64,000 nt of DNA. It comes from a virus (lineage: Duplodnaviria > Heunggongvirae > Uroviricota > Caudoviricetes). Position 1 is the first letter of the stretch. Every line of letters starts with the position of its first letter. The stretch is from the IMG/VR virus record IMGVR_UViG_3300020045_008999, positions 128,001 through 192,000 of that record. The stretch is one strand, 5' to 3'. This document shows positions 1 to 51,585 of this stretch, piece after piece. The notes beneath the pieces are model-generated. The model was not told where the DNA came from, did not search any database, and was given only the letters and a program-made list of their open reading frames with translations. Both the position numbers and the translations under genes were made by a program.

Positions 1-501
1 AGAACAATCAAAATTACCACCCACCGAAGTAGGTGCGCCCTCTAAAGAAGGTAATTGATCATGTGTAATAAAATCACCACCAATATACTCAGGTGCACCC
101 ACTAAGCTAGTTAAATTATTCCCATTACAATTAAAATCACCACCCACCTTCGTCGGACCACCAATCAAATTAGTTAAATTGTTATATTTGCAATTAAAAT
201 TCCACCCAACTCTAATAGGTGCCCCAAATAATGAAGTAAGTAGATTATTGCCACAATAAAATTCACCACCAACTGTAGTAGGTGATCCCTTTAAACTAGT
301 TAATTCATTATTAACACAGTAAAAATCCCCGGCAACATTATTAAATATTAATGGTAATTTAGTTAAATTACGTCTGGTTAAATTCACACAACCAGCCACA
401 TCAATAGATCCATCTAGATTAATAGAATAGTTTTCAATAGTATATTGATGGCATATTGAATCAATTCGCTGTTTTTCGCTCTGGGTAATTACGTTTTTCA
501 A
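1..501 (-). CDS. LRR-like array paralog, partial (runs off window edge)
   Basis: Manual translation from TTG at 501: LKNVITQSEKQRIDSICHQYTIENYSINLDGSIDV...GDFYCVNNELTSLKGSP. Confidence 0.8.
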   Translation of the reverse strand, partial: MKNVITQSEKQRIDSICHQYTIENYSINLDGSIDVAGCVNLTRRNLTKLPLIFNNVAGDFYCVNNELTSLKGSPTTVGGEFYCGNNLLTSLFGAPIRVGWNFNCKYNNLTNLIGGPTKVGGDFNCNGNNLTSLVGAPEYIGGDFITHDQLPSLEGAPTSVGGNFDCS

Positions 502-661
502 GACACATGTATTAATATGGCGAATATATAAATTTTTATTCATACATTTACACTTTTCTTAATATAAATAATATAACATTTAACCCATCATATATCCATA
601 TTTATGATAAGCTGATTTTTTACCAATAGAATTAATTATATATAGTGGAAACTAAATTAAT

Positions 662-1213
662 ATGATGAACGAAAATAAAAAACCGAAGGACTTTATTAAA
701 ACTACAATAGTAAAATTTATGAATGAGCAAGCCGAACCATTGAGTAATCAAGATAATGTTGTTATGAAAGAATTGTTAGTACAAGCGTTGGACGATGCGT
801 TCGATACCTTGAAGAAATTGACCCCACAAACAAAAAAGAAAACAGAGAGTGTGGAAATCATGGATGTTAAACCAGTTGATTTCATTTCGTTTATGGAACA
901 AAACAACATACCGAGCGATGCGTATTTTGACGGTCGCGACAATGGCTATGATGGCTATGATGCTTTTCTGTTATCTTGGGATATAGATGTGCCAACAACC
1001 GCGAAAGATAAGTTAGATTTTAATATTAGGGTGTTTACAAGTGTTGCCTTCAAAAGGGTTTTTGCTTTGTTGTTAGCAAACGATTATAAAAGAGTTGGAT
1101 TCAGTAGCAGACTATTGAAACAATTTGATGATACATCGGTATATGATATGTACATCGCTAAGGATTATGATAGACTTGTAGAATACTACACATTGTCATT
1201 TATCAAAGAGTAA
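662..1213 (+). CDS. hypothetical protein, 183 aa
   Basis: Long ORF, TATATA motif upstream, N-terminal FIKTTIVKFMNE motif. Confidence 0.75.
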   Translation: MMNENKKPKDFIKTTIVKFMNEQAEPLSNQDNVVMKELLVQALDDAFDTLKKLTPQTKKKTESVEIMDVKPVDFISFMEQNNIPSDAYFDGRDNGYDGYDAFLLSWDIDVPTTAKDKLDFNIRVFTSVAFKRVFALLLANDYKRVGFSSRLLKQFDDTSVYDMYIAKDYDRLVEYYTLSFIKE

Positions 1214-1242
1214 AGTATATCAATATATCCATCACTGAGATC

Positions 1243-2034
1243 CTATTCCAACCCATCTTCAATTTCTGAAATTAAAAGATTTAAATTTTCTTCATTTAAC
1301 GTTAAATCTTCATTCCAAATTTCAAAATGTCGTTGATACTTTATTATAGTTTTGTAATGCTTATTATTTCTCGTAAAACTTTGAGGCAGTCTATTTAAAT
1401 CACAGTGAAATCCCCTACCTATTTCAATATCATCATCACCGGAATAAGTAGAAATTAACTCATTATCAGAACATGAATAAATACCCACCACTGTAATCGG
1501 GGTCCCCATCAATGTTTTTAATTTATTAATAGCACACCGAAACGACCCACCTATTGTTCTAGGCGAACCTACCAAAGTAGTTAATCCATTACACTGGCAG
1601 TTAAAATCACCACCAATTGTAGTAGGTGCTCCCACTAATGAGGTCAATTTATTATTGTTGCACACAAAATTACCACGCACTACAATCGCGGATCCACTCA
1701 ATGATGTTAATTGATTATGACCACACATGAGGTCACCACCTATAGTCACTGGAGATCCCTCTAATGAAGTCAATTTATTACTATTGAAATAACAATTTCC
1801 ACCCACGGTATGAGGTGAACCCTGTAATGAAATCAATTCATTTAATGAGCAATTAAAATCACCAGTCACATTTCCAAATTGTAATGGAAATTTTGATAAA
1901 TTATTATCATGTAAATTCACACTACCATCCACATCAATGGAACCATCTGGGTTAATGGTATAATTTTGGATTTTATATTTCACACAAATTAAATCGATAC
2001 GATCCTTTTCTTTTTTGGTAATTAAGTTCTTCAT
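1243..2034 (-). CDS. LRR-like array paralog, 263 aa, ~6 modules
   Basis: Family N-cap, 21-aa repeats and tail; start moved to MKNL at 2034. Confidence 0.85.
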   Translation of the reverse strand: MKNLITKKEKDRIDLICVKYKIQNYTINPDGSIDVDGSVNLHDNNLSKFPLQFGNVTGDFNCSLNELISLQGSPHTVGGNCYFNSNKLTSLEGSPVTIGGDLMCGHNQLTSLSGSAIVVRGNFVCNNNKLTSLVGAPTTIGGDFNCQCNGLTTLVGSPRTIGGSFRCAINKLKTLMGTPITVVGIYSCSDNELISTYSGDDDIEIGRGFHCDLNRLPQSFTRNNKHYKTIIKYQRHFEIWNEDLTLNEENLNLLISEIEDGLE

Positions 2035-2073
2035 GTATCTATATATAAATTCTGGTGGTGTTACAATAATCAT

Positions 2074-2081
2074 TATATTTG
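2074..2081 (+). promoter_or_regulatory. Bacteroidota-type -7 promoter box (TATATTTG)
   Basis: Matches TAnnTTTG, 40 bp upstream of the 2121 ORF. Confidence 0.55.
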
Positions 2082-2120
2082 TGCTAACATTTACAAATAT
2101 ATATTAAAATAGTTAGATTA

Positions 2121-2552
2121 ATGAAAATACAATCCACTATAATAGCACCGGAAATGTTATTAATACTTTCTATAATATTCGAAAGTGTCACCCAAAATCA
2201 AAATGGCGATACTACCCAGGTATATTTTAATGATAAGACCATTAGTGCCGAACTATTTAGTATTATATCAGTAAACAAATACCCTGATAGTACTTATGGT
2301 CTTTATTTTCATAATGGTAACACAGGGGACCATAGTCTTTATTTCATACTTAGTATTGGTATTGATCTTAGTATTGATGGAAATTCTACCTATGGTAATT
2401 TTTTAATGAGTCGTGATTGCAAATTATCATTTGACACATGTAAAATGTTCTATGATTTGAATATATCAATTTACTATTATATCGATAATTGTCGTATTTG
2501 TTATGATGAGGCAGCAATAAAACGTATTATTGCAATTAATACTATTCTATAG
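2121..2552 (+). CDS. hypothetical protein, 143 aa; paralog of the 37583-38036 pseudogene
   Basis: Shared motifs YFxDKTIS, TYGxFxM, LSxDxCKxxYDLN and tail KRIIAINTIL. Confidence 0.75.
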   Translation: MKIQSTIIAPEMLLILSIIFESVTQNQNGDTTQVYFNDKTISAELFSIISVNKYPDSTYGLYFHNGNTGDHSLYFILSIGIDLSIDGNSTYGNFLMSRDCKLSFDTCKMFYDLNISIYYYIDNCRICYDEAAIKRIIAINTIL

Positions 2553-2573
2553 TCCTAACAACATATGATTATC

Positions 2574-3362
2574 TTATTCCAGACCATCTTTAATTTCATC
2601 TAATAAAGTTTGGTAGTTTTCATCATTCAACGAAAGATTATCATCCCAAATTTCAAAATGTCTTTGGTACTTCAAAATTATTTTAATATTATCTATGTTG
2701 TCAATAAATAATTTGAATAATTGCCCATCACACCGTAATTTCCCACCCAATTCAATGTCAGTATTGCCGGAATAGGTAGTTATCATTTTATTTTTAAGAC
2801 AACTAAAATCACCACCAATCACCACCGGCGAACCCTCTAATGAGGACAATTTATTAGTATTACAATAAAAATCACCACCAATCTCACTAGGCGAACCCTC
2901 TAATGACGTCAATTTATTTAATGAGCAATTAAAATTACCACCAATCTCACTAGGGGAACCCTCTAATGAAGTTAATTCATTATAAGAACAACTAAAATCA
3001 CCACTAACTTTAATAGGTGAACCCTCTAATGAAGTTAATTCATTAATGTAACAATAATAATCTTTTGAAACAGTAACCGGTCCAGCCACTAGTGAAGTCA
3101 ATTTGTTATCGTTACAGTTAAATATACCACCAACCGTATGAGGGGATCCCTTTAATGTAATTAATTTATTTCCGTCACAATAAAAATCTCCACTCACTTT
3201 CACAAATTTTAAAGGCAATGCATTTAAAGATAGTCCTGTAAATACAACACTACCATCAACGTCGATGGAACCATCTGGGTTTATCGAATAGTTTTTGATT
3301 TTATATTCTTTACATATTAAATCGATCTGGTCCTTTTCCTCTTTACTAATTAAGTTCTTCAT
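2574..3362 (-). CDS. LRR-like array paralog, 262 aa, ~6 modules
   Basis: Family N-cap, 21-aa repeats, tail. Confidence 0.85.
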   Translation of the reverse strand: MKNLISKEEKDQIDLICKEYKIKNYSINPDGSIDVDGSVVFTGLSLNALPLKFVKVSGDFYCDGNKLITLKGSPHTVGGIFNCNDNKLTSLVAGPVTVSKDYYCYINELTSLEGSPIKVSGDFSCSYNELTSLEGSPSEIGGNFNCSLNKLTSLEGSPSEIGGDFYCNTNKLSSLEGSPVVIGGDFSCLKNKMITTYSGNTDIELGGKLRCDGQLFKLFIDNIDNIKIILKYQRHFEIWDDNLSLNDENYQTLLDEIKDGLE

Positions 3363-3372
3363 AAATTTATTT

Positions 3373-4035
3373 TTATTCTAGACCATCTTCTATTTCTAGT
3401 AACAAGTCATTAAAGTTTTCAACATTTAATGATAAGTCATCATTCCAGATACTAAAATAACGTTGGTACTTCAGAATCAGTTTAATATTAGCCAGGTTAT
3501 CAATAAACAATGGTGGTAGATTTCCAACCGATATTGAGCAGTGACCGCCGAGGTTAATGTCCTCATCACCACCATAGGTGCTTATTATATCATTAATAGA
3601 ACAGTTTAAATTGCCACCAATAATTTTAGGGGCACCCTCTAACGTAGATAGTTTATTACAACTACAGTAAAAAGTACCACTCACCGTTTCAGGACTACCG
3701 GTTAATGAGGTTAAAACATTATCGCTACAATCATATTGTCCAGCTTTTGATGGTCCACCTACCAGATTGTGTAATAGATTACCTCGACAGTCAAACGTTT
3801 TATAAACTTCGTTCGGTGATCCATACAGGGTGGTTAATTTATTATTGTGACAACTGAAATAACCACTAACTTTATCAAATCGCAATGGTAATTCAGTAAG
3901 ACCTTTATTGTAAAATGATACACTACCATCAACGTCGATGGAACCATTTGGATTAATTGAATAGTTCGCTATGCTATACTTTTCACATATTAAATCAATC
4001 CGGTCCTTTTCCTCTTTAGTAATTAAGTTTTTCAT
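3373..4035 (-). CDS. LRR-like array paralog, 220 aa, ~4 modules
   Basis: Family N-cap, 21-aa repeats, tail. Confidence 0.85.
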   Translation of the reverse strand: MKNLITKEEKDRIDLICEKYSIANYSINPNGSIDVDGSVSFYNKGLTELPLRFDKVSGYFSCHNNKLTTLYGSPNEVYKTFDCRGNLLHNLVGGPSKAGQYDCSDNVLTSLTGSPETVSGTFYCSCNKLSTLEGAPKIIGGNLNCSINDIISTYGGDEDINLGGHCSISVGNLPPLFIDNLANIKLILKYQRYFSIWNDDLSLNVENFNDLLLEIEDGLE

Positions 4036-4081
4036 GGTTTATATATTAAAATGTAGTCATGGATTGTCTATCGTAGTAGTA

Positions 4082-4834
4082 TTAAAAATGTGTTTTTTTC
4101 TTTATATTTAACGAAGTCGGATCAAATATCACATAATTACAATAGGTGTCGTAATATACCACACCATCAATACCAGATCGGGACAAAAGACCAGAAGTTT
4201 CTTTAGCAGATAACCCAATTGATAAATATAAATCTTCTCCTGAACGAATTGTCATGTCGTTTATCAGTAATTGTCCGTCGTCTTGTACAATTTTTCCAAA
4301 TCCTTCTAATTTAAATTGGGTCAATATTTTACCAATCTGTTCATTAGTGATTGGTGATTTCCATAAAATGAAATCACTTCCAAAAATTTCTACTTCATAT
4401 AGAACGCGGGCCCGGACCAATTTTAATAATGTCGCCGCCTTAATTAAATCATATTCATTATTAGTTATTTCATTTGAATCTAGTAACTGTTTCGAATAGG
4501 ATTTAATAATAATTAGCAAAATTTCTGGTTTGTTACCATGTGTTTTGACAGCATTTGTCATGAATTTATTAACACCATCCGATGCGCGAATGCCATCAAG
4601 TGTCACCGTTGATTTTCCCTCTAAGCTATCTGCCCATTGCTTTGCGCTTTTCTTAGATTCCGTTAGATAGATTCCGTATCCAAATCCATTATTCCCAATT
4701 CCACTACCGATGTAATCAGATGAGAAGCTATCAAAACTAATTCCGGTACCATGAAAGGCAATTGTGACATCCCCCGTTTCATGCGACACATTTAAATATT
4801 CAGTCAGTGTTGTAGTGATGAATTTCCCAGCCAT
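4082..4834 (-). CDS. ADP-ribosyltransferase-like protein (ART-PolyVal-like)
   Basis: FHGT..FDSF...GSGIGNNGFGYGIYLT near the N-terminus and GIDGVV..YVIFDP at the C-terminus. Confidence 0.65.
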   Translation of the reverse strand: MAGKFITTTLTEYLNVSHETGDVTIAFHGTGISFDSFSSDYIGSGIGNNGFGYGIYLTESKKSAKQWADSLEGKSTVTLDGIRASDGVNKFMTNAVKTHGNKPEILLIIIKSYSKQLLDSNEITNNEYDLIKAATLLKLVRARVLYEVEIFGSDFILWKSPITNEQIGKILTQFKLEGFGKIVQDDGQLLINDMTIRSGEDLYLSIGLSAKETSGLLSRSGIDGVVYYDTYCNYVIFDPTSLNIKKKTHF

Positions 4835-4860
4835 GATGATTACTATTTATATTTTGTGAT

Positions 4861-5598
4861 TTATTCCAGTCCATCTTTAATTTCATCTAATAAGATCTGG
4901 AAGTTTTCTTCATTAAATGTATGATCTTCATTCCAAACCATGAAATAACGTTGGTATTTCAATATTAATTCTTGATGCAGTTTTAGGTTGTTTGTATAAA
5001 GAAATGGCAAATTGGCTTTTTCGATATTAAAATCACCACCCAAATACATATCAGTTTCACCCATATAGCCGGATGTTAGCTTTGGACTTAGAAGACAAAT
5101 AAAATCCCTACCAACATAAGCGGGGACACCCATTAAGTCAACTAAATTAATACTACCAAACATAAAATCACCCCCAATAAATTCAGGAGCACCAATTAAT
5201 GAAGTTAACGAATTATTATCGTAACAATAATACCCAAAATCAACTTTTGTTGGACCATTCTCTAATGTAGTAATTGAGTTTCCAATGCATGAAAAAGCAC
5301 CCTTGATATATTTCGGTGCTCCAATCAGCGATGTTAGTTCATTATGTCCGCAGTTAAAATCCCCACCAACGCTATGTGGTGAACCGATCAACGATAATAA
5401 ATCATTGTATGAACAATCAAATGATCCACTCACCTTACCAAAATTAATCGGAAACTCAGACAGGCTATGGTCATATAATTTCACATTACCATTTACGTCA
5501 ATAGATCCATCAGAATTGATTGAATATTTTACGATGTCATGTTCTTTGCAAATTGAATCGATTATATCTTTTTCTTCTTTAGTAATTAAATTCTTCAT
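4861..5598 (-). CDS. LRR-like array paralog, 245 aa, ~5 modules
   Basis: Family N-cap, 21-aa repeats, tail. Confidence 0.85.
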   Translation of the reverse strand: MKNLITKEEKDIIDSICKEHDIVKYSINSDGSIDVNGNVKLYDHSLSEFPINFGKVSGSFDCSYNDLLSLIGSPHSVGGDFNCGHNELTSLIGAPKYIKGAFSCIGNSITTLENGPTKVDFGYYCYDNNSLTSLIGAPEFIGGDFMFGSINLVDLMGVPAYVGRDFICLLSPKLTSGYMGETDMYLGGDFNIEKANLPFLYTNNLKLHQELILKYQRYFMVWNEDHTFNEENFQILLDEIKDGLE

Positions 5599-5686
5599 GA
5601 GTATAATTTAGTTCCACCTATATATAAAAATCCCACCGCTCAAAGTGTGCGCACCCACGTTGTTAACGAAATGATTTATCGACAAT

Positions 5687-6415
5687 TTATCTCAAACCGT
5701 CTTCGATTTCACTAATCAGAACATTAAAATTTTCCTCATTAAATGAAAGATCTTCATTCCAAATTTCAAAGTGTCGTTGATATTTCAAAATCAGTTTAAT
5801 ATTATTCAACTTATCAATAAACAATGGTGGTAATTTATTTTTGCTTAAAAAACACCCATCCCCAATTTCAATATCGACATCAACAGAATATGTTGAAGAT
5901 ATAACATTGCCACTTGCGTTGTAAAACCTACCCACTGTTAGCGGACTTCCAACTAATGAAGTTATTTGATTAAAGTGGCAGTAGAAATCACCACCAACTG
6001 TAGTAGGTGCGCCCACTAATGAGGTCAATTTATTATTGTTGCACACAAAATTACCACGCACGACAATCGTGGATCCACTCAATGATGTTAATTGATTATG
6101 ACCACACATGAGGTCACCACCGATAGTCACTGGAGATCCCTCTAATGAAGTCAATTTATTACTATTGAAATAACAATTTCCACCCACGGTATGGGGTGAA
6201 CCCTGTAATGAAGTCAATTTATTTAATGAGCAATTGAAATTACCAGACACAATGTTGAATTTTACAGGAAATTTAGTTAATTTTTTATCAAATAAATTCA
6301 CACTACCATTCACATCGATAGATCCATCCGAATTAATTGAATAATTTTCAATACGATATTGTTTGCAAATGGAATCGATTCGATTCGATAATATATTACT
6401 GATTATATTTTTCAT
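5687..6415 (-). CDS. LRR-like array paralog, 242 aa, ~5 modules
   Basis: Family N-cap, 21-aa repeats, tail. Confidence 0.85.
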   Translation of the reverse strand: MKNIISNILSNRIDSICKQYRIENYSINSDGSIDVNGSVNLFDKKLTKFPVKFNIVSGNFNCSLNKLTSLQGSPHTVGGNCYFNSNKLTSLEGSPVTIGGDLMCGHNQLTSLSGSTIVVRGNFVCNNNKLTSLVGAPTTVGGDFYCHFNQITSLVGSPLTVGRFYNASGNVISSTYSVDVDIEIGDGCFLSKNKLPPLFIDKLNNIKLILKYQRHFEIWNEDLSFNEENFNVLISEIEDGLR

Positions 6416-6418
6416 ATA

Positions 6419-7093
6419 TTACCCTAACCCGTCTTTAATTTCGGTCATTAAGCCATTGTAGTTCTCAACATTCAAAGTTAAGTCATCATCCCAGATACCA
6501 AAATAACGTTGGTATTTCAGAATCAGATCACCAGCTTTGTGTTGATCCATATAATCCTGTAGAGATTGTGGTAATTTATTATGATTTAAATAGCAGCCTT
6601 CACCAACTTCAATATCGACATCCCCTGAATATGTAGACGTTATGGCATTTCTCGTTGCCCAAAAAGACCCACTCACGGTCTCGGGGATTCCAACTAATGA
6701 AGTTAATTTATTATAATCACATCCAAAATAGCCACCAACTGTACGTGGGGAACCCACTAAGGAAGTTAATACATTACACTGGCAGTTAAAATATTTACCG
6801 ATAGTAGTAGGTGCCCCTATCAAATTAGCCAATCGATTATACTGGCAGTTAAAAAACCCACCAATTAAAGTAGGCGATCCTTCCAATGAAGTTAATCCAT
6901 TGTGCTGGCAACTAAAATCACCGGAAACATTATTGAATATTAATGGTAAATTATTTATTTTTTTATTAGACAGGTCAATATTACCAACCACATCAATGGA
7001 ACCATCTGGGTTAATTGAATAATTTCTAATATTATATTGCCTACAGATGGAATCGATTCGTTCCTTTCCATTTTTAGTAATTATTTTTTCCAT
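6419..7093 (-). CDS. LRR-like array paralog, 224 aa, ~4 modules
   Basis: Family architecture; start moved to MEKII at 7093. Confidence 0.8.
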   Translation of the reverse strand: MEKIITKNGKERIDSICRQYNIRNYSINPDGSIDVVGNIDLSNKKINNLPLIFNNVSGDFSCQHNGLTSLEGSPTLIGGFFNCQYNRLANLIGAPTTIGKYFNCQCNVLTSLVGSPRTVGGYFGCDYNKLTSLVGIPETVSGSFWATRNAITSTYSGDVDIEVGEGCYLNHNKLPQSLQDYMDQHKAGDLILKYQRYFGIWDDDLTLNVENYNGLMTEIKDGLG

Positions 7094-7389
7094 GTAATAA
7101 TTATAATTATCTTCATAATTCACAAAAAACAATGAATGCAAATATAAGATATACTAGGTAGATATAATGCTTTTTATTTAAATATTTTTATTCATCTATT
7201 TTCATGTTCAGTAGATTGTCGGATTATGCAGTTGTTGATATAATATTACGGTAAATTGTTCCGATAATAAAAGTTTTAAAACTAACCAATTTTAAATCTA
7301 CAAACACCTGGTATCAAAATAATTAAATATGGACTTAGAATCAATGTGGGACTGTTATTTAATATGTCCTCGGTGTTGTTAACATCCAC

Positions 7390-8181
7390 TTATTCCAAAC
7401 CATCTTTAATTTCATCTAGAAGTATTTGGAAGTTTTCATCATTTAGTGTTAGATCATTATTCCAGATTTCGAAGTGTCGCTGGTATTTTAAAATCAAATT
7501 AATATGATCAATGTTACGCAAAAGTGATTCTGGTAAAATATTATGGGACATAGTAATTTCACCACCCACCTCGATGTCTATATTTCCAGAATATGTAGAA
7601 GATAATTGATTAAGTGAACAATACATATCGTGACCAATCGTAGTAGGCGAGCCCTCTAATGAAGTTAAATTATTTTCCTCACAATTAAAATCACCACCAA
7701 CTGTAACCGGTCCACCCACAAGTGAAGTCAAATTATTATCACTACATGAATAATAACCTCCAACCGTAGTAGGGGAACCCTTTAATGATGTTAAGTTATT
7801 ACGCGAACAATTCAAAACATGATTTAATATAACCGGCAAACCCACTAATGAAGTCAAATTATTACGCGAACAATAGAAATTACCACTAACTTTTTTTGGA
7901 CCATTTTCTAACGACGTTAATTTATTATTAGAACAATCAAAATTACCACCCACTGTACGCGGAAAACCCTCAAGTGAGGTTAATTCACATTCCTCGATTG
8001 CAAAGTCACCAGTGACAATATTAAATACGAGTGGTGATACAGTTATATTTTTATTATAAATTTCGACGTCACCATCCACATCAATAGAACCATCCGCGTT
8101 TATTAAATAGTTTTGAATGGTATATTTTTTACATATTAAATCGATTTGGTCCTTTTCTTCTTTACTAATTAAGTTCTTCAT
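7390..8181 (-). CDS. LRR-like array paralog, 263 aa, ~6 modules
   Basis: Family N-cap, 21-aa repeats, tail. Confidence 0.85.
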   Translation of the reverse strand: MKNLISKEEKDQIDLICKKYTIQNYLINADGSIDVDGDVEIYNKNITVSPLVFNIVTGDFAIEECELTSLEGFPRTVGGNFDCSNNKLTSLENGPKKVSGNFYCSRNNLTSLVGLPVILNHVLNCSRNNLTSLKGSPTTVGGYYSCSDNNLTSLVGGPVTVGGDFNCEENNLTSLEGSPTTIGHDMYCSLNQLSSTYSGNIDIEVGGEITMSHNILPESLLRNIDHINLILKYQRHFEIWNNDLTLNDENFQILLDEIKDGLE

Positions 8182-8193
8182 CTGGTTGTATTT

Positions 8194-8802
8194 TTATTTC
8201 AATCCATCTTCTATCTCTGAAATCAAGTCATTGAAGTTCTCAACATTTAAGGTTAAATCATCATTCCAGATGAAAAAATGCCGCTGATACTTCAATATCA
8301 TTTTAATGTGACTGATATTATTGATAAACAGCTCTGGTAAGTTGCTATAACTATCCATATTGACAATGCCGTCAATACCAATATCAGTTTCGCCCGAATA
8401 AGTTGACATTAGTAAAGCATTAAGACAAAATAACCCACCCGCAATATACTCAGGGGCACCCTCTAATGAAGTTATATTATTCGCATCACATATATAATGT
8501 CCCCCTACATACTTAGGCCCACCCACTAATGATACTAAATCATTTTCCTGACATGCAAAGTTACCACCCACTGTAATCGGGGACCCCTTTAAGGTAGTCA
8601 ATTTATTATTTTTACAATAAAAACTACCGGATACTTTGTTGAATACTAGTGGTAATTCATATAGATTGCTTTCCGATAAATTATTAACATTACCAATTAC
8701 ATCAATCGATCCATCTGGGTTAATAGAATATTCTTTGATAAGATATTTCATACAGATTGAATCGATACGGTCCTTTTCTTCTTTAGTAATTAAATTCTTC
8801 AT
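8194..8802 (-). CDS. LRR-like array paralog, 202 aa, ~3 modules
   Basis: Family N-cap, 21-aa repeats, tail. Confidence 0.85.
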   Translation of the reverse strand: MKNLITKEEKDRIDSICMKYLIKEYSINPDGSIDVIGNVNNLSESNLYELPLVFNKVSGSFYCKNNKLTTLKGSPITVGGNFACQENDLVSLVGGPKYVGGHYICDANNITSLEGAPEYIAGGLFCLNALLMSTYSGETDIGIDGIVNMDSYSNLPELFINNISHIKMILKYQRHFFIWNDDLTLNVENFNDLISEIEDGLK

Positions 8803-38036: not shown

Positions 38037-38038
38037 TA

Positions 38039-43079: not shown

Positions 43080-43089
43080 AAGCTATATA

Positions 43090-43348: not shown

Positions 43349-43350
43349 CA

Positions 43351-43962
43351 CTACTGTAGCCCCTCTTCTATTTCAGAAATCAAATTCTGGAAGTTTTCTT
43401 CATTTAATGTAAGATCATCATTCCATATAAAGAAATACCTCTGGTACTTTAATATTAGTTTAGTAACAACGTTATTATGTTCCATATTAGACTTAAGGAG
43501 TGGCGGTAATGTATCACCTGGACAAAAAAATCCTAAAACTTCAATATCCACATCACCAGAATAAGTTGAGGTTAATTTGTTACCATTGCACTCAAAATCA
43601 CCACCAACAGTAACCGGGCCACCCACAAGTGAAGTCAATTTATTTCCATGACAGTGGTAATCACCACCAACAGTATGTGGACCACCATCTAATGAAGTCA
43701 ACTGATTTTGACCACATCTAAAATCACCACCAACAGTATGTGGACCGTCCTCTAATGTAGTCAAGAAGTTCGATGTACAAGAAAATCTACCAGAAATCTT
43801 ACCAAATTTCAATGGGAACTTAACTAAGTTCTCACTATATAAATTCACATTGCCATCCACATCAATCGATCCATCTGAGTTGATTGTATAATTCTCGATG
43901 CCGTATTGATCACATATTAAATCGATCTGGTCCTTTTCACCTTTGCTAATTAAATTTTTCAT
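43351..43962 (-). CDS. LRR-like array paralog, 203 aa, ~3 modules
   Basis: Family N-cap, 21-aa repeats, tail. Confidence 0.85.
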   Translation of the reverse strand: MKNLISKGEKDQIDLICDQYGIENYTINSDGSIDVDGNVNLYSENLVKFPLKFGKISGRFSCTSNFLTTLEDGPHTVGGDFRCGQNQLTSLDGGPHTVGGDYHCHGNKLTSLVGGPVTVGGDFECNGNKLTSTYSGDVDIEVLGFFCPGDTLPPLLKSNMEHNNVVTKLILKYQRYFFIWNDDLTLNEENFQNLISEIEEGLQ

Positions 43963-43972
43963 AAGCTATATA

Positions 43973-44515
43973 TTATTCTAATCCATCTTCAATTTCAGCT
44001 ATCAAATCAGCAAAGTTATCTGCATTCAAAGTTAAGTCATCGTTCCAGATTTCAAAATGCCTCTGGAACTTCAAGATTAGTTTAATATGATCCAGGTTAT
44101 CCAATAATTGCTGTGGTAGTAGACTGTTGTCGGCACATCTTACAATTCCGGATACGTCAATATCCGTATCACCTGTGTAAGTAGAAGTTAAATTATTATA
44201 ACTACAATAGAAATCACCACCAACCGTATGTGGGGATCCCTCTAATGAAGTTAAAACATTGTACCCACATCTAAAATCACCACCAACTGTAGCCGGGCAA
44301 CCGTCTAATGAAGTCAAGTAATTACCAAGGCAACTGAAATTACCAGTCACTTTTCCAAATTTCAAAGGTATAACAGATATTTCTTCTTCGTGTAATGCTA
44401 CATCACCATTCACATCAACTGAACCATCTGAGTTGATCGAATAGTTCTCGATGTCGTATTGTTTACATATTAAATCAATTTGATCCTTTTCTTCTTTAGA
44501 TATTAAATTCTTCAT
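43973..44515 (-). CDS. LRR-like array paralog, 180 aa, ~2 modules
   Basis: Family N-cap, 21-aa repeats, tail. Confidence 0.85.
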   Translation of the reverse strand: MKNLISKEEKDQIDLICKQYDIENYSINSDGSVDVNGDVALHEEEISVIPLKFGKVTGNFSCLGNYLTSLDGCPATVGGDFRCGYNVLTSLEGSPHTVGGDFYCSYNNLTSTYTGDTDIDVSGIVRCADNSLLPQQLLDNLDHIKLILKFQRHFEIWNDDLTLNADNFADLIAEIEDGLE

Positions 44516-44526
44516 AAAACTATATA

Positions 44527-45135
44527 TTATTTCAACCCCTCTTCAATTTCTGCTATCAAATTCAGGAAGTTTTCCTCATTCAAAGATAGATCATCGTTCC
44601 AGATTTCAAAATGTCTCTGGTACTTCAAAATTAGTTTAATATGATCCATATGATCAATAACTAGCTGAGGTAACTGTAAAAATGTGTCACCTGAGTATAA
44701 ATCGCCAGCGAATTCAATATCAATATCCCCAGAATAGGTAGACGTAATGTTATTATTAGTACATTTTAAATCACCACCAATAATACTTGGACTACATTCC
44801 AACGTAGTTAAATTGTTATAACTACAATAAAAATCACCAACTACCGTATGTGGTCCACCCTCCAATGAAGTTAATTCATTATAATAACAATTAAAATCAC
44901 CACCAATTATAGTAGGCGATCCCACCAATGTAGTCAAATGATTAAACGAACATGAGAAATGACCAGAAACTTTACCAAATTTTAATGGTAATTGTATTAA
45001 TTTTTTCCTCGAAATAAACACATCCCCATCAACATCAATAGATCCATCCGAGTTAATTTTATATTTCTTTATATTGTATAGATAGCATATCGAATCGATA
45101 CGATCCTTTTCTTCTTTGTTAATTAAGTTCTTCAT
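44527..45135 (-). CDS. LRR-like array paralog, 202 aa, ~3 modules
   Basis: Family N-cap, 21-aa repeats, tail. Confidence 0.85.
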   Translation of the reverse strand: MKNLINKEEKDRIDSICYLYNIKKYKINSDGSIDVDGDVFISRKKLIQLPLKFGKVSGHFSCSFNHLTTLVGSPTIIGGDFNCYYNELTSLEGGPHTVVGDFYCSYNNLTTLECSPSIIGGDLKCTNNNITSTYSGDIDIEFAGDLYSGDTFLQLPQLVIDHMDHIKLILKYQRHFEIWNDDLSLNEENFLNLIAEIEEGLK

Positions 45136-45146
45136 GTAGCTATATA

Positions 45147-45707
45147 TTATTCTAATCCCTCTTTAATTTCTGCTATCAAATCATTGAAGTTTTCTTCGTT
45201 CAATGTTAGATCCTCATTCCAGATCATAAATGGTCGCTGGTACTTCAGAATCAATTTAATATGACCCAGGTTATCCACCAATTGCTGAGGTAGGTGGTTA
45301 GAATTGACACTTGTGACATCGGAAATGCATCTTATAATACCGGATACCTCAATATCAGTATCACCAGCGTAAGTAGAAGTTAGAACATTATACGTGATAT
45401 CAAAATAACCCCCAACATATGCCGGGCATCCCACCAATGATGTCAGCATATTATCCTCACAATCAAAATCACCACCAACATTCTTAGGGGAACCTACCAG
45501 TGATTTCAAGCCATTCGAATCACATCGGAAAACACCAGATACATTATTGAATTTTACTGGAATTACGATTAAGCCGCTATCCGCTAAATTGACATCCCCC
45601 TTTACATCAATCGATCCATCCGAGTTAATCGAATAATTCTTGATGCCAAATTCTTCACATATCAAATCAATTTGATCCTTTTCTTCTTTACTAATTAAGT
45701 TCTTCAT
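45147..45707 (-). CDS. LRR-like array paralog, 186 aa, ~2 modules
   Basis: Family N-cap, 21-aa repeats, tail. Confidence 0.85.
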   Translation of the reverse strand: MKNLISKEEKDQIDLICEEFGIKNYSINSDGSIDVKGDVNLADSGLIVIPVKFNNVSGVFRCDSNGLKSLVGSPKNVGGDFDCEDNMLTSLVGCPAYVGGYFDITYNVLTSTYAGDTDIEVSGIIRCISDVTSVNSNHLPQQLVDNLGHIKLILKYQRPFMIWNEDLTLNEENFNDLIAEIKEGLE

Positions 45708-45717
45708 GGCCTATATA

Positions 45718-46569
45718 TTATTCTAACCCCTCGTTAATTTCTGCTATCAAATCATTGAAATTTTCTTCGTTCAGACTAAGATCTTCATTCCAGATCATAA
45801 AATGCCGCTGGTACTTTAAAATTAATACTATGTGTTCTATATTTTCATTAAACAGTTGAGGCAGTGTACTATTTGTAAAGCATACGTCAGCCCTCAACTC
45901 AATGTCTATATCACCAGAATATGTAGATGTCAACAGGTTTTTTTTACAATCGAAATAACCACAAGTAGCAGTTGGGGCACCCTCTAAAGATGTCAATTTA
46001 TTATGACCACATAGCAAATCACCGCCAACCCACTCAGGACCCCCCACTAATGAAGTCAACTGATTGTGACTACAATAAAAATTACCTTTCACTGTGGTAG
46101 GTGAGCCATGTAATGTAGTCAACATATTAAAGAAGCAGCTATAGCCTTTTCCGATCGTAGTAGGCCCATCCACTAATGAAGTCAAACGATTATCATCACA
46201 GTTAAAATGCCCACCAACCTCAACCGGACCCCCCACTAATGAAGTCAAATAATTATGACCACAGTCAAAATATCCACTCACCGTAGTAGGACAACCCACT
46301 AATGAAGTCAATTGATTTTTGACACAATCGAAACCACCCACCGTAGTAGGACAACCCACTAATGAAGTCAATTGATTATCATTACAAATAAAATTCCCAG
46401 ATACCGTATTAAATTTTATTGGCAACTCTTTTAATTTTTGCTCATGTAAGTTTACATCACCATCAACATCAATCGACCCATCCGAGTTGATAGTATAATT
46501 TTCGATTCGGTGGTCATTACATATCTCATCGATACGATCCTTTTCTTCTTTGGTAATTAAATTCTTCAT
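45718..46569 (-). CDS. LRR-like array paralog, 283 aa, ~7 modules
   Basis: Family N-cap, 21-aa repeats, tail. Confidence 0.85.
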   Translation of the reverse strand: MKNLITKEEKDRIDEICNDHRIENYTINSDGSIDVDGDVNLHEQKLKELPIKFNTVSGNFICNDNQLTSLVGCPTTVGGFDCVKNQLTSLVGCPTTVSGYFDCGHNYLTSLVGGPVEVGGHFNCDDNRLTSLVDGPTTIGKGYSCFFNMLTTLHGSPTTVKGNFYCSHNQLTSLVGGPEWVGGDLLCGHNKLTSLEGAPTATCGYFDCKKNLLTSTYSGDIDIELRADVCFTNSTLPQLFNENIEHIVLILKYQRHFMIWNEDLSLNEENFNDLIAEINEGLE

Positions 46570-46579
46570 GGTCTATATA

Positions 46580-47120
46580 TTATTCTAAGCCGTCTTTAAT
46601 ATCTGCAATCAGATTGTTAAAGTTTTCTTCATTCAATGTTAGATCATCATTCCAGATCATGAAATGCCGCTGGTACTTTAAAATTAATAAGATGTGCTCT
46701 ATATTATCATTAAACAGTTGAGGTAACGGATTACTTACAATATTAACATTCTCACCTATTTCAATATCAATATCCATTAAATAGGTGGTGGTTATATTAT
46801 TAAAGGAACAATCGAAACTACCCAAAATAGTAACCGGACATCCATTCAATGAAGTTAGACTATTATTGTTACAATAAAAATACCCACCCACCGTAGTAGG
46901 TGAGCCCTCCAGAGATGTCAATTTGTTTAAAACACAATTGAAATTACCAGACACAATGTTGAATCTTACCGGAAATTTAGTTATTTTTTTTATCAAATAA
47001 ATCTACATTGCCGTGCACGTCAATTGATCCATCTGAGTTAATTGAATAGTTTTTAATATTTTCATTAGAGCATATTCTATCGATACGATCCTTTTCTTCT
47101 TTGCTTATTAAGTTCTTCAT
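46580..47120 (-). pseudogene. frameshifted LRR-like paralog (179 aa if repaired)
   Basis: MKNL start at 47120; coding-strand A8 run (T8 at 46984-46991) has one extra base. Confidence 0.75.
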
Positions 47121-47131
47121 ATAAATATTTA

Positions 47132-47734
47132 CTATTCCAACCCTTCTTCAATTTCCGATATCAAATCCTTGAAGTTTTTTTTATTTAAGGTAAGATCATC
47201 ATTCCAAATATAAAAATGTCGCTGGTACTTTAAGATCAATTTGATGTGATTTATATTTGTGATAAGTGATTTATATATTTTTTTACCTGGGTAAAAATCG
47301 CCACCAAAATCAATATCGATATCACCAGAATACGTAGAACGGATAGGTGTATCCTCAAAAAATAAATCACCACCAATGGTATGAGGTGCTCCCTCTAATG
47401 AAGTTAATTCAATATTACCACTGCAAACAAAATCACCATTAACCACATTCGGGGCACCATTTAGTGATGTTAGTCTATTATCACTACACTTAAAATTACC
47501 ACCCACCGTAGTAGGACCACCCTCTAATGATGTCAATAGATTAAAATTACATCCAAAATCACCAGTTATCTTACCGAACTTCAATGGCAGCTTAACTATA
47601 TCTATATTAAATATACTGACATCACCATCCACATCAACTGAACCATCCGAGTTGATCGAATAATTCACGATTCCGTATTGATCACATATTAAATCAATAC
47701 GATCCTTTTCCTCTTTACTAATTAAGTTCTTCAT
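47132..47734 (-). CDS. LRR-like array paralog, 200 aa, ~3 modules
   Basis: Family architecture; start moved to MKNL. Confidence 0.85.
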   Translation of the reverse strand: MKNLISKEEKDRIDLICDQYGIVNYSINSDGSVDVDGDVSIFNIDIVKLPLKFGKITGDFGCNFNLLTSLEGGPTTVGGNFKCSDNRLTSLNGAPNVVNGDFVCSGNIELTSLEGAPHTIGGDLFFEDTPIRSTYSGDIDIDFGGDFYPGKKIYKSLITNINHIKLILKYQRHFYIWNDDLTLNKKNFKDLISEIEEGLE

Positions 47735-47851
47735 ATATCTATATATAAAATCCAAATCACTCAAAGGTGGCCGACTTACGTAGTTATAATCGCAGTGAGC
47801 GGCATAATTCTACCCATCTTGTTCCAATCTTTATGTTAGCGTAGGTATGAG

Positions 47852-48419
47852 TTATTCAAGTATTTGTGAAATTATCCACGTTCTATACAATTTTGCTAGA
47901 TCATACGATTCCGGATTTGCTAATTGGTCCATGCGTAATCCCAGCCTAAATAATTCGATAATCGTATCTATATCATTATTGATCCCGGAAAAACATCCAT
48001 CAATGTTGGTGGTAATTCCGTCAAATGAATGAATGAATGTGAAAATCAATATCACAAAAATAATTACCACCAACTTTACTTGGACCGAATTCCAATGATG
48101 TTAGTTTATTTTCACAGCAATAAAAACACTCACCGATAATACTTGGACCGAATTCCAATGATGTTAATTCATTTTCACAACACAAAAAATCACCAGTAAC
48201 TTCAATAGGACAACCGTATAATGTACTGAGCTTATTTTGTACACATATAAAGTCACCAATAACCTTATTAAACCGCAATGGTAGCTCAGTTAAATTTTGA
48301 CCACATAGATCAACCCCATCATAAGCATCAATTGTACCATCGTCATTAATGTCGTAGCCGGAAATTGAATACTTCTGACAGATATCCTCGATTTTATTAT
48401 TTCGTTCAGAATTATCCAT
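47852..48419 (-). pseudogene. divergent LRR-like gene split by a (CATT)4 repeat; different C-terminal tail
   Basis: ORFs 48021-48419 and 47852-48073 join in frame if one CATT unit (48024-48039) is removed. Confidence 0.7.
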
Positions 48420-48465
48420 AATTGTATTTTTCCTAAGTATTGAATATAAAAAGAAACTCGTAATG

Positions 48466-49206
48466 CTATTTATTTAATTGTTTAGTGTATTTTTTCTTTA
48501 TCATTTGTTTTGTTAGCTTTTCCTTATCACCATCTTCAACAATTCTAATTATTATACTATCGATACCAACGTCCTTGATCATCTTATCTAAGGTAACAGA
48601 ATGACCAGATTTTAAATTGTTTAGTAAGCCATCATTTTTACTAGTATATACTATAAATTTTTTATTTACCTGATTGGTTATGACAACAGAATAACGCTTG
48701 CTTTGTGTGAATAAATGAGATGGATATAGGTATAACTTTTCATGCAATTGTTTTAATGACTTATATCCCAAAACATCTTTCATAATATTGATCGACTTAT
48801 GTACTTCGGTATCCTCTGCTCCTTTGATAAATAGATTGTATCTTTCGTTGGGATTATTATTATCGTTAAATTCAATATTGGTTAGATCCTGGACCATAGA
48901 ATATTCTCTTATAAGCCTTTCTTCATCAGCGCGATCAGATGACAACATTTTGACAATTAGTCGACTACCAGAGTCCAGAATTCCCTTTATTAGTTTATTC
49001 TTTCTTACATTTATATTAGTTGCCTTTTGTAGATCTAATATGTGGAATGCAATCCTCCCCTTTATATTACTAGTTGATCCAATATAAAAATCATTTATCA
49101 TATACACCCCAGATGTATACGTATCTTCAATATCCGCAAACCATTTTATGTTATCAGAAACATAATTTATCAATAGTTTTTTCTTATCAACCTCAGTTTT
49201 TGTCAT
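48466..49206 (-). CDS. GIY-YIG nuclease / homing endonuclease-like protein
   Basis: SGVYMI-NDFYIGSTSNIKGRIAFH motif with downstream E and N. Confidence 0.7.
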   Translation of the reverse strand: MTKTEVDKKKLLINYVSDNIKWFADIEDTYTSGVYMINDFYIGSTSNIKGRIAFHILDLQKATNINVRKNKLIKGILDSGSRLIVKMLSSDRADEERLIREYSMVQDLTNIEFNDNNNPNERYNLFIKGAEDTEVHKSINIMKDVLGYKSLKQLHEKLYLYPSHLFTQSKRYSVVITNQVNKKFIVYTSKNDGLLNNLKSGHSVTLDKMIKDVGIDSIIIRIVEDGDKEKLTKQMIKKKYTKQLNK

Positions 49207-49304
49207 TTGTATATAAATTAATCAATTATATACAAATGATATGTGAAAGTTTAGTGATGTGTAAAATAAATAATCAAATAAATACTAGTGAATATTTAAC
49301 ATAT

Positions 49305-49485
49305 TAAATTTGTATAAGAACTTTAAATTTCTTAACTTTGTGTTGGCACCTTATACTCTACTACTAGACTATAGTGTGCCAACATAAAGATACTAATTAA
49401 TACAATACAAAACAAGACTCATAGACAAAAGTTATCAACAATCGTTCACTGCGTTTATAAATACGTTAGCGACACCACTCTGATA
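49305..49485. repeat. copy E of the intergenic module (left hairpin missing)
   Basis: Promoters 49309-49340 (+) and 49385-49416 (-); IR tgttggca..tgccaaca. Confidence 0.75.
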
Positions 49486-50088
49486 CTATTCTAATCCGTC
49501 TTCAATTTCTGCTATCAAATTCTGGAAGTTTTCCTCATTTAAAGTTAAGTCATCATTCCAGATGAAGAAATGTCTTTGGTACTTCAAGATCAATTTAATG
49601 TGATGTACATTATTCTTCAATTGCTGTGGTAGGATGTTTAAGCTACATGTTACAATTCCGGATACGTCAATATCCGTATCACCTGAGTAAGTAGAAGTTA
49701 ATTTATTATTACTACAATATAAATTACTACCAACCGATTGTGGTGCCCCCACTAATGAAGTTAAACCATTGTACCCACATCTGAAATTCCCACCAACAGA
49801 TGTAGGTGATCCTTCCAATGACGTCAACATATTAATACTACAATAAAAATCATCACCAACTGTATGAGGGGATCCCTCTAAGGTAGTTAATATGTTCATT
49901 GAACAAGAAAATTTACCGGTCACATTACCAAATCGCAATGGTAATTGTTTTAAGCGTTTATGTTCTAAATCAACATCTCCCTCAACGTCAATGGATCCAT
50001 CAGCATTAATAGTGTAATGCCTAATATGAGATCTTCTACAAATCGAATCAATACGGTTCTTTTCCTCTATACTAATTAAGTTTTTCAT
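49486..50088 (-). CDS. LRR-like array paralog, 200 aa, ~3 modules
   Basis: Family N-cap, 21-aa repeats, tail. Confidence 0.85.
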   Translation of the reverse strand: MKNLISIEEKNRIDSICRRSHIRHYTINADGSIDVEGDVDLEHKRLKQLPLRFGNVTGKFSCSMNILTTLEGSPHTVGDDFYCSINMLTSLEGSPTSVGGNFRCGYNGLTSLVGAPQSVGSNLYCSNNKLTSTYSGDTDIDVSGIVTCSLNILPQQLKNNVHHIKLILKYQRHFFIWNDDLTLNEENFQNLIAEIEDGLE

Positions 50089-50211
50089 AAGCTATATATA
50101 CTATTATTATTTTTTCAATTTTTACCAAAACAGCGAATGGAAATATAATATATACTATGTAGGAATGATGAAGTTTATTAAATATTCTAGATTAACAACT
50201 CTATCACGCTC

Positions 50212-50445
50212 AGTAGATTATCGGATACCAGCTTTTATCCCAGGGATAATGATCCAGCTGCCCATATAAAGATCGAAAAGTGATAGAACAATCGAAAATG
50301 TTAAATATACCAAACCCAAGACTACACATCGAATAGATACAACAGTGTTATACCTATCGAAGAATATATGTTAATTCATAGTAGATTATCGGAAACCAGC
50401 TTTTATCCCAGGGATAATGATCCAGCTGCCCATATAAAGATCGAA
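50212..50445. repeat. 66-bp direct repeat x2 (50212-50277 and 50380-50445) containing palindrome TTATCCC-A-GGGATAA
   Basis: One mismatch between copies; 102-bp spacer. Confidence 0.9.
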
Positions 50446-50741
50446 CCGCAATTAATTATTCAAGATAATATACCATTCAAATATCAACGGATGTCATAAT
50501 ACAAATTAAAACATATTTAAATACCCAACCTGGTGAAATGTCAAAAAAAATGACATACATACCGGGAATTACCAGTTAGAACAATCCTAATGATTTAAAT
50601 ATGAATATAATTGAGCTATTTAAATACAGTGGATTTAAGCCACTTAAATTTTAAAATGGTGTCCTAGTATTAAAAAAATATAATAAAGCCTTATATTAGG
50701 CAACATTGAAGGGATTTAATGAATTTACTTATATAAGACAG

Positions 50742-50842
50742 CAGCGAACGAAGTGAGCTGTATAATTATACAAAATTTTAACAACGTTGTTATCAACAAT
50801 CGCTCACTACGTTTATAACTACATTAGCGACCACCATCTAGA
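50742..50842. repeat. collapsed copy G of the intergenic module (outer hairpin motifs only)
   Basis: cagcgaacgaagtgagctg at 50742-50760, then aacaacgttgttatcaacaatcgctcac. Confidence 0.65.
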
Positions 50843-50844
50843 TA

Positions 50845-51585
50845 TTATTCTAATCCTTCTTCAATTTCGGATATCAAATCCTTGAAGTTTTCTTCATTCA
50901 ATGTCAGATCATCATTCCATATAAAGAAATATCTCTGGTACTTAAAGATCATTCTGAAATCAACCATGTGTTCACCATCACCGTCTTTACCAAATTGTAC
51001 CGGCATGTACTTTGTGTCATAATATAAAGTGCCCTTTAATTCAATATCATCAGCACAATACGTGGATGATATTGAATTACCTTCACAATGATAACCACCT
51101 CCAATCATAGTAGGTGATCCTATTAAGTTACTTAGTTGGTTATCGGCACAACAAAAATTTCCATTAACACTATTTGGACCACCTTCCAATGAAGTTAAAA
51201 TGTTCCTATGACAATAAAAATCCACATTAATGATATCCGGTGATCCCTTTAACGAAGTTAATTGGTTATAAGAACAAAAGAAACTATTTCGGACTAACTT
51301 AGGGCCCCAGTCTAAATTAACCAAGTTATTAGACTGTCCGTAAAATGTCCCACCAACCTCATGCGGACATCCTTTCAATGAAGTTAACTGATTTCCATTG
51401 CAATAAAAATCACCAGATACTTTATTAAAGCTCAATGGTAAATCAGTTAATTCCTTTTTGGTTAAATTAACATCACCATCAACGTCAATAGTCCCATCTG
51501 AGTTTATCGAGTAATTAAATATATTATATTTCTTACAAATTGAATCAATACGATCCTTTTCCTCTTTAGATATTAAATTCTTCAC
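50845..51585 (-). CDS. LRR-like array paralog, 246 aa, ~5 modules (GTG start)
   Basis: Family N-cap, 21-aa repeats, tail. Confidence 0.85.
   Translation of the reverse strand: MKNLISKEEKDRIDSICKKYNIFNYSINSDGTIDVDGDVNLTKKELTDLPLSFNKVSGDFYCNGNQLTSLKGCPHEVGGTFYGQSNNLVNLDWGPKLVRNSFFCSYNQLTSLKGSPDIINVDFYCHRNILTSLEGGPNSVNGNFCCADNQLSNLIGSPTMIGGGYHCEGNSISSTYCADDIELKGTLYYDTKYMPVQFGKDGDGEHMVDFRMIFKYQRYFFIWNDDLTLNEENFKDLISEIEEGLE

Follow-up and report, generated by a model that had tools for sequence, protein, structure and literature searches.

The DNA analysed here, referred to as the window, is a 64,000-nucleotide stretch (bases 128,001-192,000) of a single 596,785-bp contig, IMG/VR record IMGVR_UViG_3300020045_008999, which has a G+C content of 31.9% and uses the standard bacterial code. 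Most of window positions 1-51585 is occupied by an array of paralogous genes, each coding for an N-terminal cap (N-cap), a variable number of 21-residue leucine-rich repeat (LRR) units and a nearly constant C-terminal tail, and we conclude that the locus is very probably a repertoire of diversified binding proteins. Members were identified with hidden Markov models (HMMs) of the cap and the tail, and an open reading frame (ORF) matching both is termed intact. Genome-wide there are 97 ORFs with cap and tail, 13 with the cap only and two with the tail only; 97 of about 112 family copies are intact. The intact genes lie between 33.7 and 233 kb of the contig and sum to 67 kb, or 11.3% of the genome. 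A first-pass annotation, made by a model from the sequence of the window, had counted about 61 paralogs filling most of 51 kb and continuing past its left edge, and this stands: positions 1-51585 hold 59 intact members (one across the left edge) covering 78% of the 51.6 kb, together with two split family genes and one truncated one, and the family extends 94 kb further to the left. The architecture that it described, a shared N-cap, a variable number of 21-residue modules and a near-invariant tail, is borne out by the HMMs as well. The region between cap and tail is quantised in 21-residue steps from 84 to 252 residues, and in the tail, which is near-invariant in protein sequence, K, Y, Q, R, F, W, G and L are conserved at 98-100%. 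The array runs in a left, an inverted middle and a right block, as follows (window coordinates).

1..8802, minus strand: left block, from the ORF list, translations and cap and tail HMM hits, with family genes at 1-543 (partial), 1243-2073, 2574-3362, 3373-4035, 4861-5598, 5687-6415, 6419-7141, 7390-8181 and 8194-8802
8856..21899, plus strand: inverted middle block, from ORFs and HMMs, with family genes from 9505-10107 to 21297-21899
8856-9495, plus strand: split family gene of the middle block (8856-9131 with 9079-9495)
21935..51585, minus strand: right block, with about 37 family genes mostly 10-14 bp apart
32371..33414, minus strand: longest member in the window (347 residues, 10-11 units)
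46580-46996 with 47132-47764, minus strand: broken family gene of the right block
48021-48419, minus strand: truncated family gene of the right block

The sign of the GC skew flips at about 8 kb and at about 22 kb, around the inverted block. The array is real and not an assembly artefact, because its paralogs are at most 70% identical to one another (median 45%) and pieces of it have orthologs in independent JGI and Logan assemblies. The closest paralog of a gene is not its neighbor, the median rank distance being 24 where 29 is expected at random, and from this chance distance together with the low identity it follows that the array is old and well mixed, with no recent burst; recent tandem duplication of the 'accordion' type is rejected on the same two grounds. 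Across the 97 members the proteins have a median isoelectric point of 4.7, no hydrophobic segment (maximum 19-residue hydropathy 1.6) and no signal peptide.

The genome is 98% complete by the estimate in its record, carries 18 tRNAs and a tmRNA, and has the hallmark genes of a tailed phage, namely a large terminase gene and the two following genes, such that the array is phage-encoded, as had been proposed.

genome 444.6-446.3 kb: gp23-type major capsid gene
genome 396.0-397.7 kb: T4-type portal gene

The terminase is closest to those of the uncultured phages LR745206 (635 kb) and LR756502 (642 kb), at 63-64% identity, and is 42% identical to that of a 735-kb uncultured phage; its more remote relatives are found in Tenacibaculum phages, Flavobacterium phages and Lak phages. 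Al-Shayeb et al. assigned the 635-735-kb giants to a 'Mahaphage' clade with predicted Bacteroidetes hosts (PMC7162821). Judged by these genes, the source contig is a tailed, T4-like huge phage with Mahaphage relatives, and a Bacteroidota host is plausible from the relatives and from that report.

The organisation of one member is representative of the family.

36019-36621, minus strand: representative gene
36487..36621, minus strand: N-cap, residues 1-45, with one helix and short strands and the motif Y-x-I-N-x-D-G-S-I-D-V, from the alignment
36172..36486, minus strand: LRR solenoid of five 21-residue turns, unit L-T-S-L-x-G-x-P-x-x-V-G-G-x-F-x-C-x-x-N-x
36019..36171, minus strand: pre-tail and conserved tail, modelled as a folded helical C-terminal cap (C-cap); the last 36 residues and the stop codon are 36019-36129

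Repeat statistics were drawn from 342 units of 21 residues. The scaffold positions L1, L4, G6, P8, V11, F15, C17 and N20 have entropies of 0.1-1.2 bits, with N20 present in 98% of units, C17 in 92% and L1 and L4 in 89-97%, and the tandem units satisfy the LRR core pattern F15-x-C17-x-x-N20-x-L1 and L4. Searched against PDB sequences, the family profile has internalin J (3BZ5) as its sole significant match (E 7.6e-15), and the one notable NCBIfam match is likewise the InlJ model NF033187 (E 8e-17), at 61 bits against a cut-off of 1700. In the 21-residue repeats of InlJ a cysteine replaces a core leucine (Bublitz et al. 2008, as related in PMC9525666), and by its sequence the unit described here is an internalin-J-type cysteine-ladder LRR. 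No LRR family was matched in Pfam by three members tested (E up to 0.1), and PF12799 (LRR_4) is precomputed only on a few homologs and on 17% of one Atlas cluster. No family in Pfam, PHROGs or NCBIfam is above threshold, the only matches being weak ones to DUF4893, T2SSN and unknown PHROGs.

An AlphaFold2 model built on a 15-member alignment has a predicted local distance difference test (pLDDT) of 96-98 over cap and repeats (98 for residues 11-50). The best 50 matches from an exhaustive structural search with VIA-align are nearly all LRR proteins (Z 8-11, root-mean-square deviation about 3-4 Å), including YopM, IpaH/SspH1, internalins, SDS22 and a complex of a lamprey variable lymphocyte receptor (VLR; Z 8.9); Foldseek matches are weak (E 0.05 or worse) and likewise nearly all LRR. 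The proteins are thus predicted to fold as LRR solenoids, as had been supposed from the sequence. The tail was modelled poorly at first, and with 134 diverse sequences the C-terminal 110 residues reached a pLDDT of 95.4, forming strands and three helices packed against the last turns. The best structural matches of this region are the ends of LRR domains (Z below 5), with no F-box-like fold, and the tail has no Pfam match. In the model the tail is a structured C-cap continuous with the solenoid and not a free peptide. Of the 'common docking tail' in the first-pass annotation, the constancy and the restriction to this family therefore hold, while the segment is modelled as a folded cap, through which docking is possible.

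The two caps differ in their distribution. A tail profile run against 1.84 billion representative proteins found 195 proteins, two of them spurious giant repeat proteins; in the others the tail is always C-terminal, in proteins of 35-308 residues, and those of at least 140 residues that were checked are all cap-LRR proteins, so that the tail was found on no other scaffold in this set. The N-cap, unlike the tail, also occurs behind other N-terminal domains in relatives, including a 1014-residue protein, and the remaining parts of such cap and LRR fusions (442 and 1014 residues) have no Pfam match. In this genome the N-cap motif is present without the tail on 13 proteins, some of them remnants of disrupted family genes; among the small cap-motif proteins are the following two.

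60604-61002 and 62230-62616, plus strand: genes for cap-motif proteins of about 130 residues with a different, basic C-terminus

Related giant phages have one to five cap-LRR genes each, none with the tail of the 97-gene family. Relatives of the family were found on JGI, ENA and Logan metagenome contigs, and scanning other IMG/VR contigs and 185,579 prokaryote genomes for strict cap and tail patterns brought up no confirmed relative. A homodimer prediction for a 200-residue member scored 0.11 against a mark of 0.42 and is uninformative either way.

Variation is concentrated at particular positions of the repeat. Positions 9, 14, 16, 18, 19 and 21 have entropies of 2.9-3.7 bits, against 1.4-2.9 bits at the remaining non-scaffold positions, and positions 14, 16, 18, 19 and 21 alternate with F15, C17 and N20. 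The variable positions are enriched in H (3.1-fold), Y, Q, N, D and S and depleted in L, I, F and P, and their codons are biased to NAY. In canonical LRRs the residues at the alternating strand positions are exposed on the concave sheet, and DSSP assigns strand at F15-x16 in every turn of the model. The variable positions would thus form the concave face, a placement taken from the consensus of LRRs and from where DSSP assigns strand. The first-pass expectation of a conserved scaffold with variation in excess at concave-face positions, and not spread uniformly, agrees with these entropies, and the same positions change fastest between orthologs (see below). The face is not the target of a diversity-generating retroelement (DGR): no match to RVT_1 was found in the 98%-complete genome, and of the mismatches between similar units 65% involve A, compared with about 60% as estimated from approximate base frequencies, with an ordinary transition bias and no adenine bias.

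Five members could be paired with orthologs on a JGI contig and a Logan contig at 83-94% identity, their next-best paralogs being 58-64% identical. Face positions in these five pairs carry 34 non-synonymous and 3 synonymous changes, a ratio of non-synonymous to synonymous rates (dN/dS) of 2.3, although the excess of dN over dS at the face, taken by itself, does not reach significance (P = 0.13), and gene conversion is a confounding factor. Elsewhere in the same pairs dN/dS is 0.12 for the scaffold, 0.17 for the cap and 0.08 for the tail, and in Fisher tests the face differs from the scaffold (P = 2e-6) and from the caps (P = 3e-8). These ratios place both caps under strong purifying selection. 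Across 89 tails the synonymous codons are randomised, at codon-usage expectation; the protein sequence is therefore what is conserved, and this conservation is old, and homogenisation of the tail by gene conversion alone is rejected.

Exchange between members is widespread. Divergence between orthologs is patchy, with 15-codon windows at 100% identity adjoining windows at 60-80%, and the orthologs are mosaic, certain cap and tail segments being closer to a different paralog. Otherwise diverged paralogs share near-identical tracts (110 nt with 1 mismatch, 273 nt with 12), some of them one 63-bp module long with a single mismatch; such sharing involves 72 of the 97 genes, and the tracts were detected solely between complete genes. 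Gene order among the orthologs is shuffled between the two related phages. As read from these comparisons, the family evolves on a fixed frame by gain and loss of modules, exchange of tracts, rearrangement and fast change of the face. Evident recombination between members and the few split or truncated genes are also what a neutral or selfish expansion would leave, in which unequal recombination multiplies copies that have no distinct ligands and many of which are decaying. We give this explanation hardly any credence, since most copies are intact (97 of about 112), purifying selection on the caps is strong although synonymous sites are saturated, there are no recent duplicates (identity 70% at most), specific orthologs are kept in related phages, and the variation is sharply position-specific.

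From the predicted fold, the position-specific variability and the selection we strongly infer that the members bind different ligands with different specificities. The locus would then be a germline repertoire of about 100 small, soluble, acidic LRR binders, each protein being one short solenoid of 2-11 InlJ-type turns between a constant N-cap and a constant helical C-cap. The outward residues of the strand x-F-x-C-x-x-N-x would differ from member to member on a fixed core of L, L, G, P, V, F, C and N, so that each member may bind its own ligand through the concave face, and the caps would give all members the same fold and probably the same partner surface.

The system most similar in sequence is Listeria internalin J, with which the family shares the 21-residue cysteine-ladder LRR, and the internalin multigene family likewise consists of paralogous LRR binders with variable repeat number. 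The Listeria family has about 25 members. The phage-encoded family is about four times larger, has its own N-cap and C-cap, and lacks the signal peptide, internalin N-cap, Ig-like inter-repeat domain and LPXTG anchor; despite the InlJ-type repeat its proteins are, on these sequence features, not internalins. Lamprey VLRs, to which the first-pass annotation compared the array, also have constant caps, a variable number of LRR modules, diversity at strand positions and exchange of module-sized tracts. The likeness holds for this architecture and fails for its origin: VLRs are assembled somatically into one incomplete gene, whereas here there are 97 complete germline genes, each with its own start, cap, repeats, tail and stop, no sign of somatic assembly and no reverse transcriptase or DGR, exchange is seen on the evolutionary scale only, and there is no homology beyond the LRR fold.

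Poxvirus ankyrin-PRANC proteins are a virus-encoded solenoid repertoire with a terminal adaptor. Giant viruses (CroV, megaviruses) have repertoires of FGxxFN/FNIP LRR proteins, which PMC9525666 itself likens to VLRs. Both resemble the present family as large sets of solenoid binders, some with a constant terminal adaptor, and differ in having eukaryotic hosts and other repeat types and caps; their F-box and PRANC adaptors serve the ubiquitin system, absent from bacteria. A precedent for paralog expansion in a single very large phage is Bacillus phage G, where a zinc ribbon is present in roughly 35 copies, an expansion termed 'unprecedented' (PMC7824862). The present family has nearly three times the copies, on a binder scaffold with position-specific hypervariability and with all members strongly diverged. 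In agreement with the first-pass remark that no phage locus of this size was known, we found no published description of the family or of a comparable phage array.

The genes of the array share an upstream motif with other genes of the phage. T[AT]ATATATA occurs at 299 sites in the genome, 188 of which have a same-strand gene start within 45 nt downstream where 10 are expected, and 52 of the 188 belong to family genes. The spacing from motif to ATG is sharply bimodal: in 52 cases it is exactly 4 nt, and the second class spans 17-24 nt. One copy precedes the major capsid gene by 39 nt (genome about 446.3 kb). The motif is most frequent in the structural region, where 39% of genes have it, and infrequent at 180-225 kb, with 9%. 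TATATA is present within 30 nt upstream of 55 of the 97 family genes, where the motif is often formed together with the preceding stop codon, as in the following spacer.

30817..30826, minus strand: typical 10-bp spacer, TAA stop and TATATA = TAATATATA, with 4 nt from motif to next ATG

By analogy with the T4 late promoter TATAAATA, which is of the AT-rich -10 type and has no -35 element, T[AT]ATATATA suggests a late-type promoter, and given such a promoter the mRNAs of the 4-nt spacing class could be leaderless. A scan for Sigma-70-type promoters gave no excess (113 found, 110 expected), and apparent intragenic 'terminators' were rejected as hairpins made by the repeated codons of S-P-T-T-V-G-G.

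Two links to structural genes are found elsewhere in the genome and in related phages.

genome 414270-421808: gene for a 1773-residue protein with long G-x-W-x-x-G-x-W, MORN-like repeats, then gene for a 737-residue neck-like protein
genome 35108-40544: three-gene module (775, 547 and 468 residues) among family genes outside the window

Part of the 737-residue protein (gene at genome 419595-421808) is similar to proteins annotated as neck proteins in Tenacibaculum and Chryseobacterium phages. On an 11.8-kb contig of a related phage the 1773- and 737-residue pair is kept (53% and 66% identity), and a divergent cap-LRR-tail gene starts directly after the stop codon of the neck-like gene. In the three-gene module the 547-residue product (gene at genome 37477-39120) is similar to Syn5 gene 53 and to further proteins annotated as 'structural proteins', and the 468-residue protein matches Syn5 gp55; all three proteins are matched in a 39.6-kb Caudoviricetes record and in Virus Rctr197k, and the 547- and 468-residue ones have additional matches in Maribacter phage Panino. 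On a related contig the module again lies between family genes, with further family genes following in the same direction. It looks like a mobile virion-appendage module; Syn5 gp53 and gp54 reportedly form a capsid 'horn'.

The reading to which we commit, and the least certain step of the proposal, is that the binders are late-transcribed and displayed on the virion. The family genes would be transcribed along with the late genes and the proteins attached to the virion by the constant C-cap, as collar, neck or capsid decorations, and a particle would carry mixed adhesins against variable host-surface structures. We hold this tentatively, at somewhat less than an even chance, and lean to a late, virion-associated role over an early anti-defence one because of the motif shared with the capsid gene, the neck-linked member and the Syn5-like module. 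T4 Hoc is a virion protein that joins a constant attachment module to a variable binding domain. The logic of a constant module plus LRRs also has a precedent in Goslar virions, in which some fibre proteins place LRR domains after a constant module (bioRxiv 10.64898/2026.04.21.720040). Hoc and the Goslar DUF7941 proteins (LRR or beta-helix) share the proposed logic of constant attachment and variable contact and differ in that no homology was found and that they number one to ten genes, not a hundred.

Several observations count against virion display. Only one neck-linked member is known, a distant one on a contig of 11.8 kb, and the gene after the neck gene in the present genome is not a family member. 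Most of the array is far from the main structural region (about 290-500 kb) and is surrounded by small uncharacterised genes and homing-endonuclease-like genes; a Vibrio phage protein with the same LRR unit adjoins a DnaB-like helicase gene and not structural genes. No oligomerisation or fibre domain is evident in the family. The portal and terminase genes lack the motif within 60 nt, the label 'late' is borrowed from T4 by analogy and backed by one hallmark gene, and the motif, with its usual 4-nt spacing, could instead be a translation signal. The family also lacks the T4-like N-terminal leader of this phage's other proteins.

That leader, M-K-x-I-K-x-F...(I/L)-N-E(S), resembles the capsid targeting sequence (CTS) of T4 and starts dozens of unrelated proteins of this phage, whose genes are mostly preceded by a TATATA motif.

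genome 70820, 236296, 288736, 300708, 329916, 464619 and 507392: examples of leader-bearing genes

T4 IPI and the P1 Dar proteins are packaged and ejected with the DNA. By analogy the LRR proteins might form an arsenal that is made late, loaded in the capsid and ejected with the DNA into the next host, for which the late-type motif, the plausibility of a loading system built on this leader, and the leader-like sequences that start the LRR proteins of the 735-kb relative can be cited. We regard this as distinctly improbable: a loose leader pattern is present in 63 non-family proteins and in 1 of the 97 members, whose N-terminus is part of the folded N-cap, acidic solenoids of 20-38 kDa would need to unfold for passage through the phage tail, and no evidence of a protease site was found.

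The unrelated genes within and beside the array are as follows.

662-1213, plus strand; 2121-2552, plus strand; 4082-4834, minus strand: unrelated genes inside the left block, the last coding for a 250-residue protein with weak ART-PolyVal/DUF3990 similarity (E 2.5e-5, below the Pfam threshold)
10150-10740, 13838-14095 and 20768-21229: unrelated genes inside the middle block
48466-49206, minus strand: GIY-YIG-like gene (weak), right end of the array
51910-52596, minus strand: HNH/endonuclease-like gene, right end of the array

It is possible that the GIY-YIG-like and HNH-like genes are homing endonucleases able to promote recombination at the right end of the array. The ART-like gene has a 79%-identical counterpart inside the array of a related phage contig (contig 4485-5237); its identity is unconfirmed, the match being below the Pfam threshold with no PDB match.

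A setting among small uncharacterised genes and homing endonucleases resembles accessory or anti-defence islands, and the proteins may instead be intracellular binders, each sequestering or inhibiting a different target: a host protein, for instance a strain-variable defence protein or one that senses late phage proteins, or else a product of a rival phage. The constant caps would then serve only for folding or for passing targets to a common effector. Small, soluble, acidic proteins without signal peptide or fibre domain would suit such a role, as would the weakly ART-like gene embedded in the array both here and in a related phage, and the Vibrio phage copy of the LRR unit beside replication genes. 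Fast change of the binding face fits an arms race, and the nearest solved LRR structures include the host-binding bacterial effectors IpaH, SspH1 and YopM. Yet the promoter-like motif is common to the capsid gene and scarce in the 180-225-kb region, and proteins made late would be ill suited to countering restriction or CRISPR. The family has no effector domain, its tail was found on no other scaffold, the ART-like match falls short of the Pfam threshold and has no counterpart in PDB, and the neck and Syn5-like links point the opposite way. We consider intracellular binding somewhat unlikely. Host defence proteins and competing phages were the targets suggested in the first-pass annotation, a suggestion that gains no direct support, the indirect clues leaning to a late, virion-associated role.

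If the proteins are displayed on the virion, a further step would be 'polyclonal' particles, each bearing a mixture drawn from about 100 inherited LRR adhesins attached by the C-cap and renewed by exchange of 63-bp modules. This would be a heritable, antibody-repertoire-like form of host recognition that tracks phase- or strain-variable host surfaces, and in its full form we think it unlikely. Recognition diversity in phages has previously been known as one hypervariable gene (DGRs) or a few tail fibers. Should the members bind different ligands, phages would join vertebrates, plants and the giant viruses of eukaryotes in meeting a recognition problem with a large germline repertoire built on a repeat scaffold.

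Nearly all knowledge of huge phages comes from metagenomes, and the greater part of their additional DNA lacks an explanation. In the present case a single internally diversified binder family would account for one ninth of a 597-kb genome, in a copy number about three times that of the phage G expansion called unprecedented (PMC7824862), and through this family the purpose of huge-phage genome size becomes directly testable. For practical use, the family offers small LRR scaffolds of the cysteine-ladder type as a natural library in which the variable positions are defined.

Some gaps in the array contain a repeated intergenic element, identified by blastn among the gaps and alignment.

29729..29958, minus strand: repeated intergenic element of about 200-270 bp, heading sub-blocks of the array
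22604-23155 (part), 39859-40225, 43080-43350, 49207-49485 and 51586-51909: further copies of the element

The element comprises an inverted repeat of ~14 bp, a conserved G+C-rich stretch and then a terminal TTTTATATATA a few bases before the ATG. Its copies are 69-81% identical over the longer alignments, and it divides the array into blocks. The gap at 22604-23155 (552 bp) also contains ~nine head-to-tail copies of an ~18-bp unit (minus strand ...ACTTACACAGTAAACA...) with no similarity to the LRR family. In the longest gap of the array, at 50089-50844 (756 bp), no family remnant was found; it carries a 66-bp direct duplication, the two copies being 98.5% identical and 168 bp apart.

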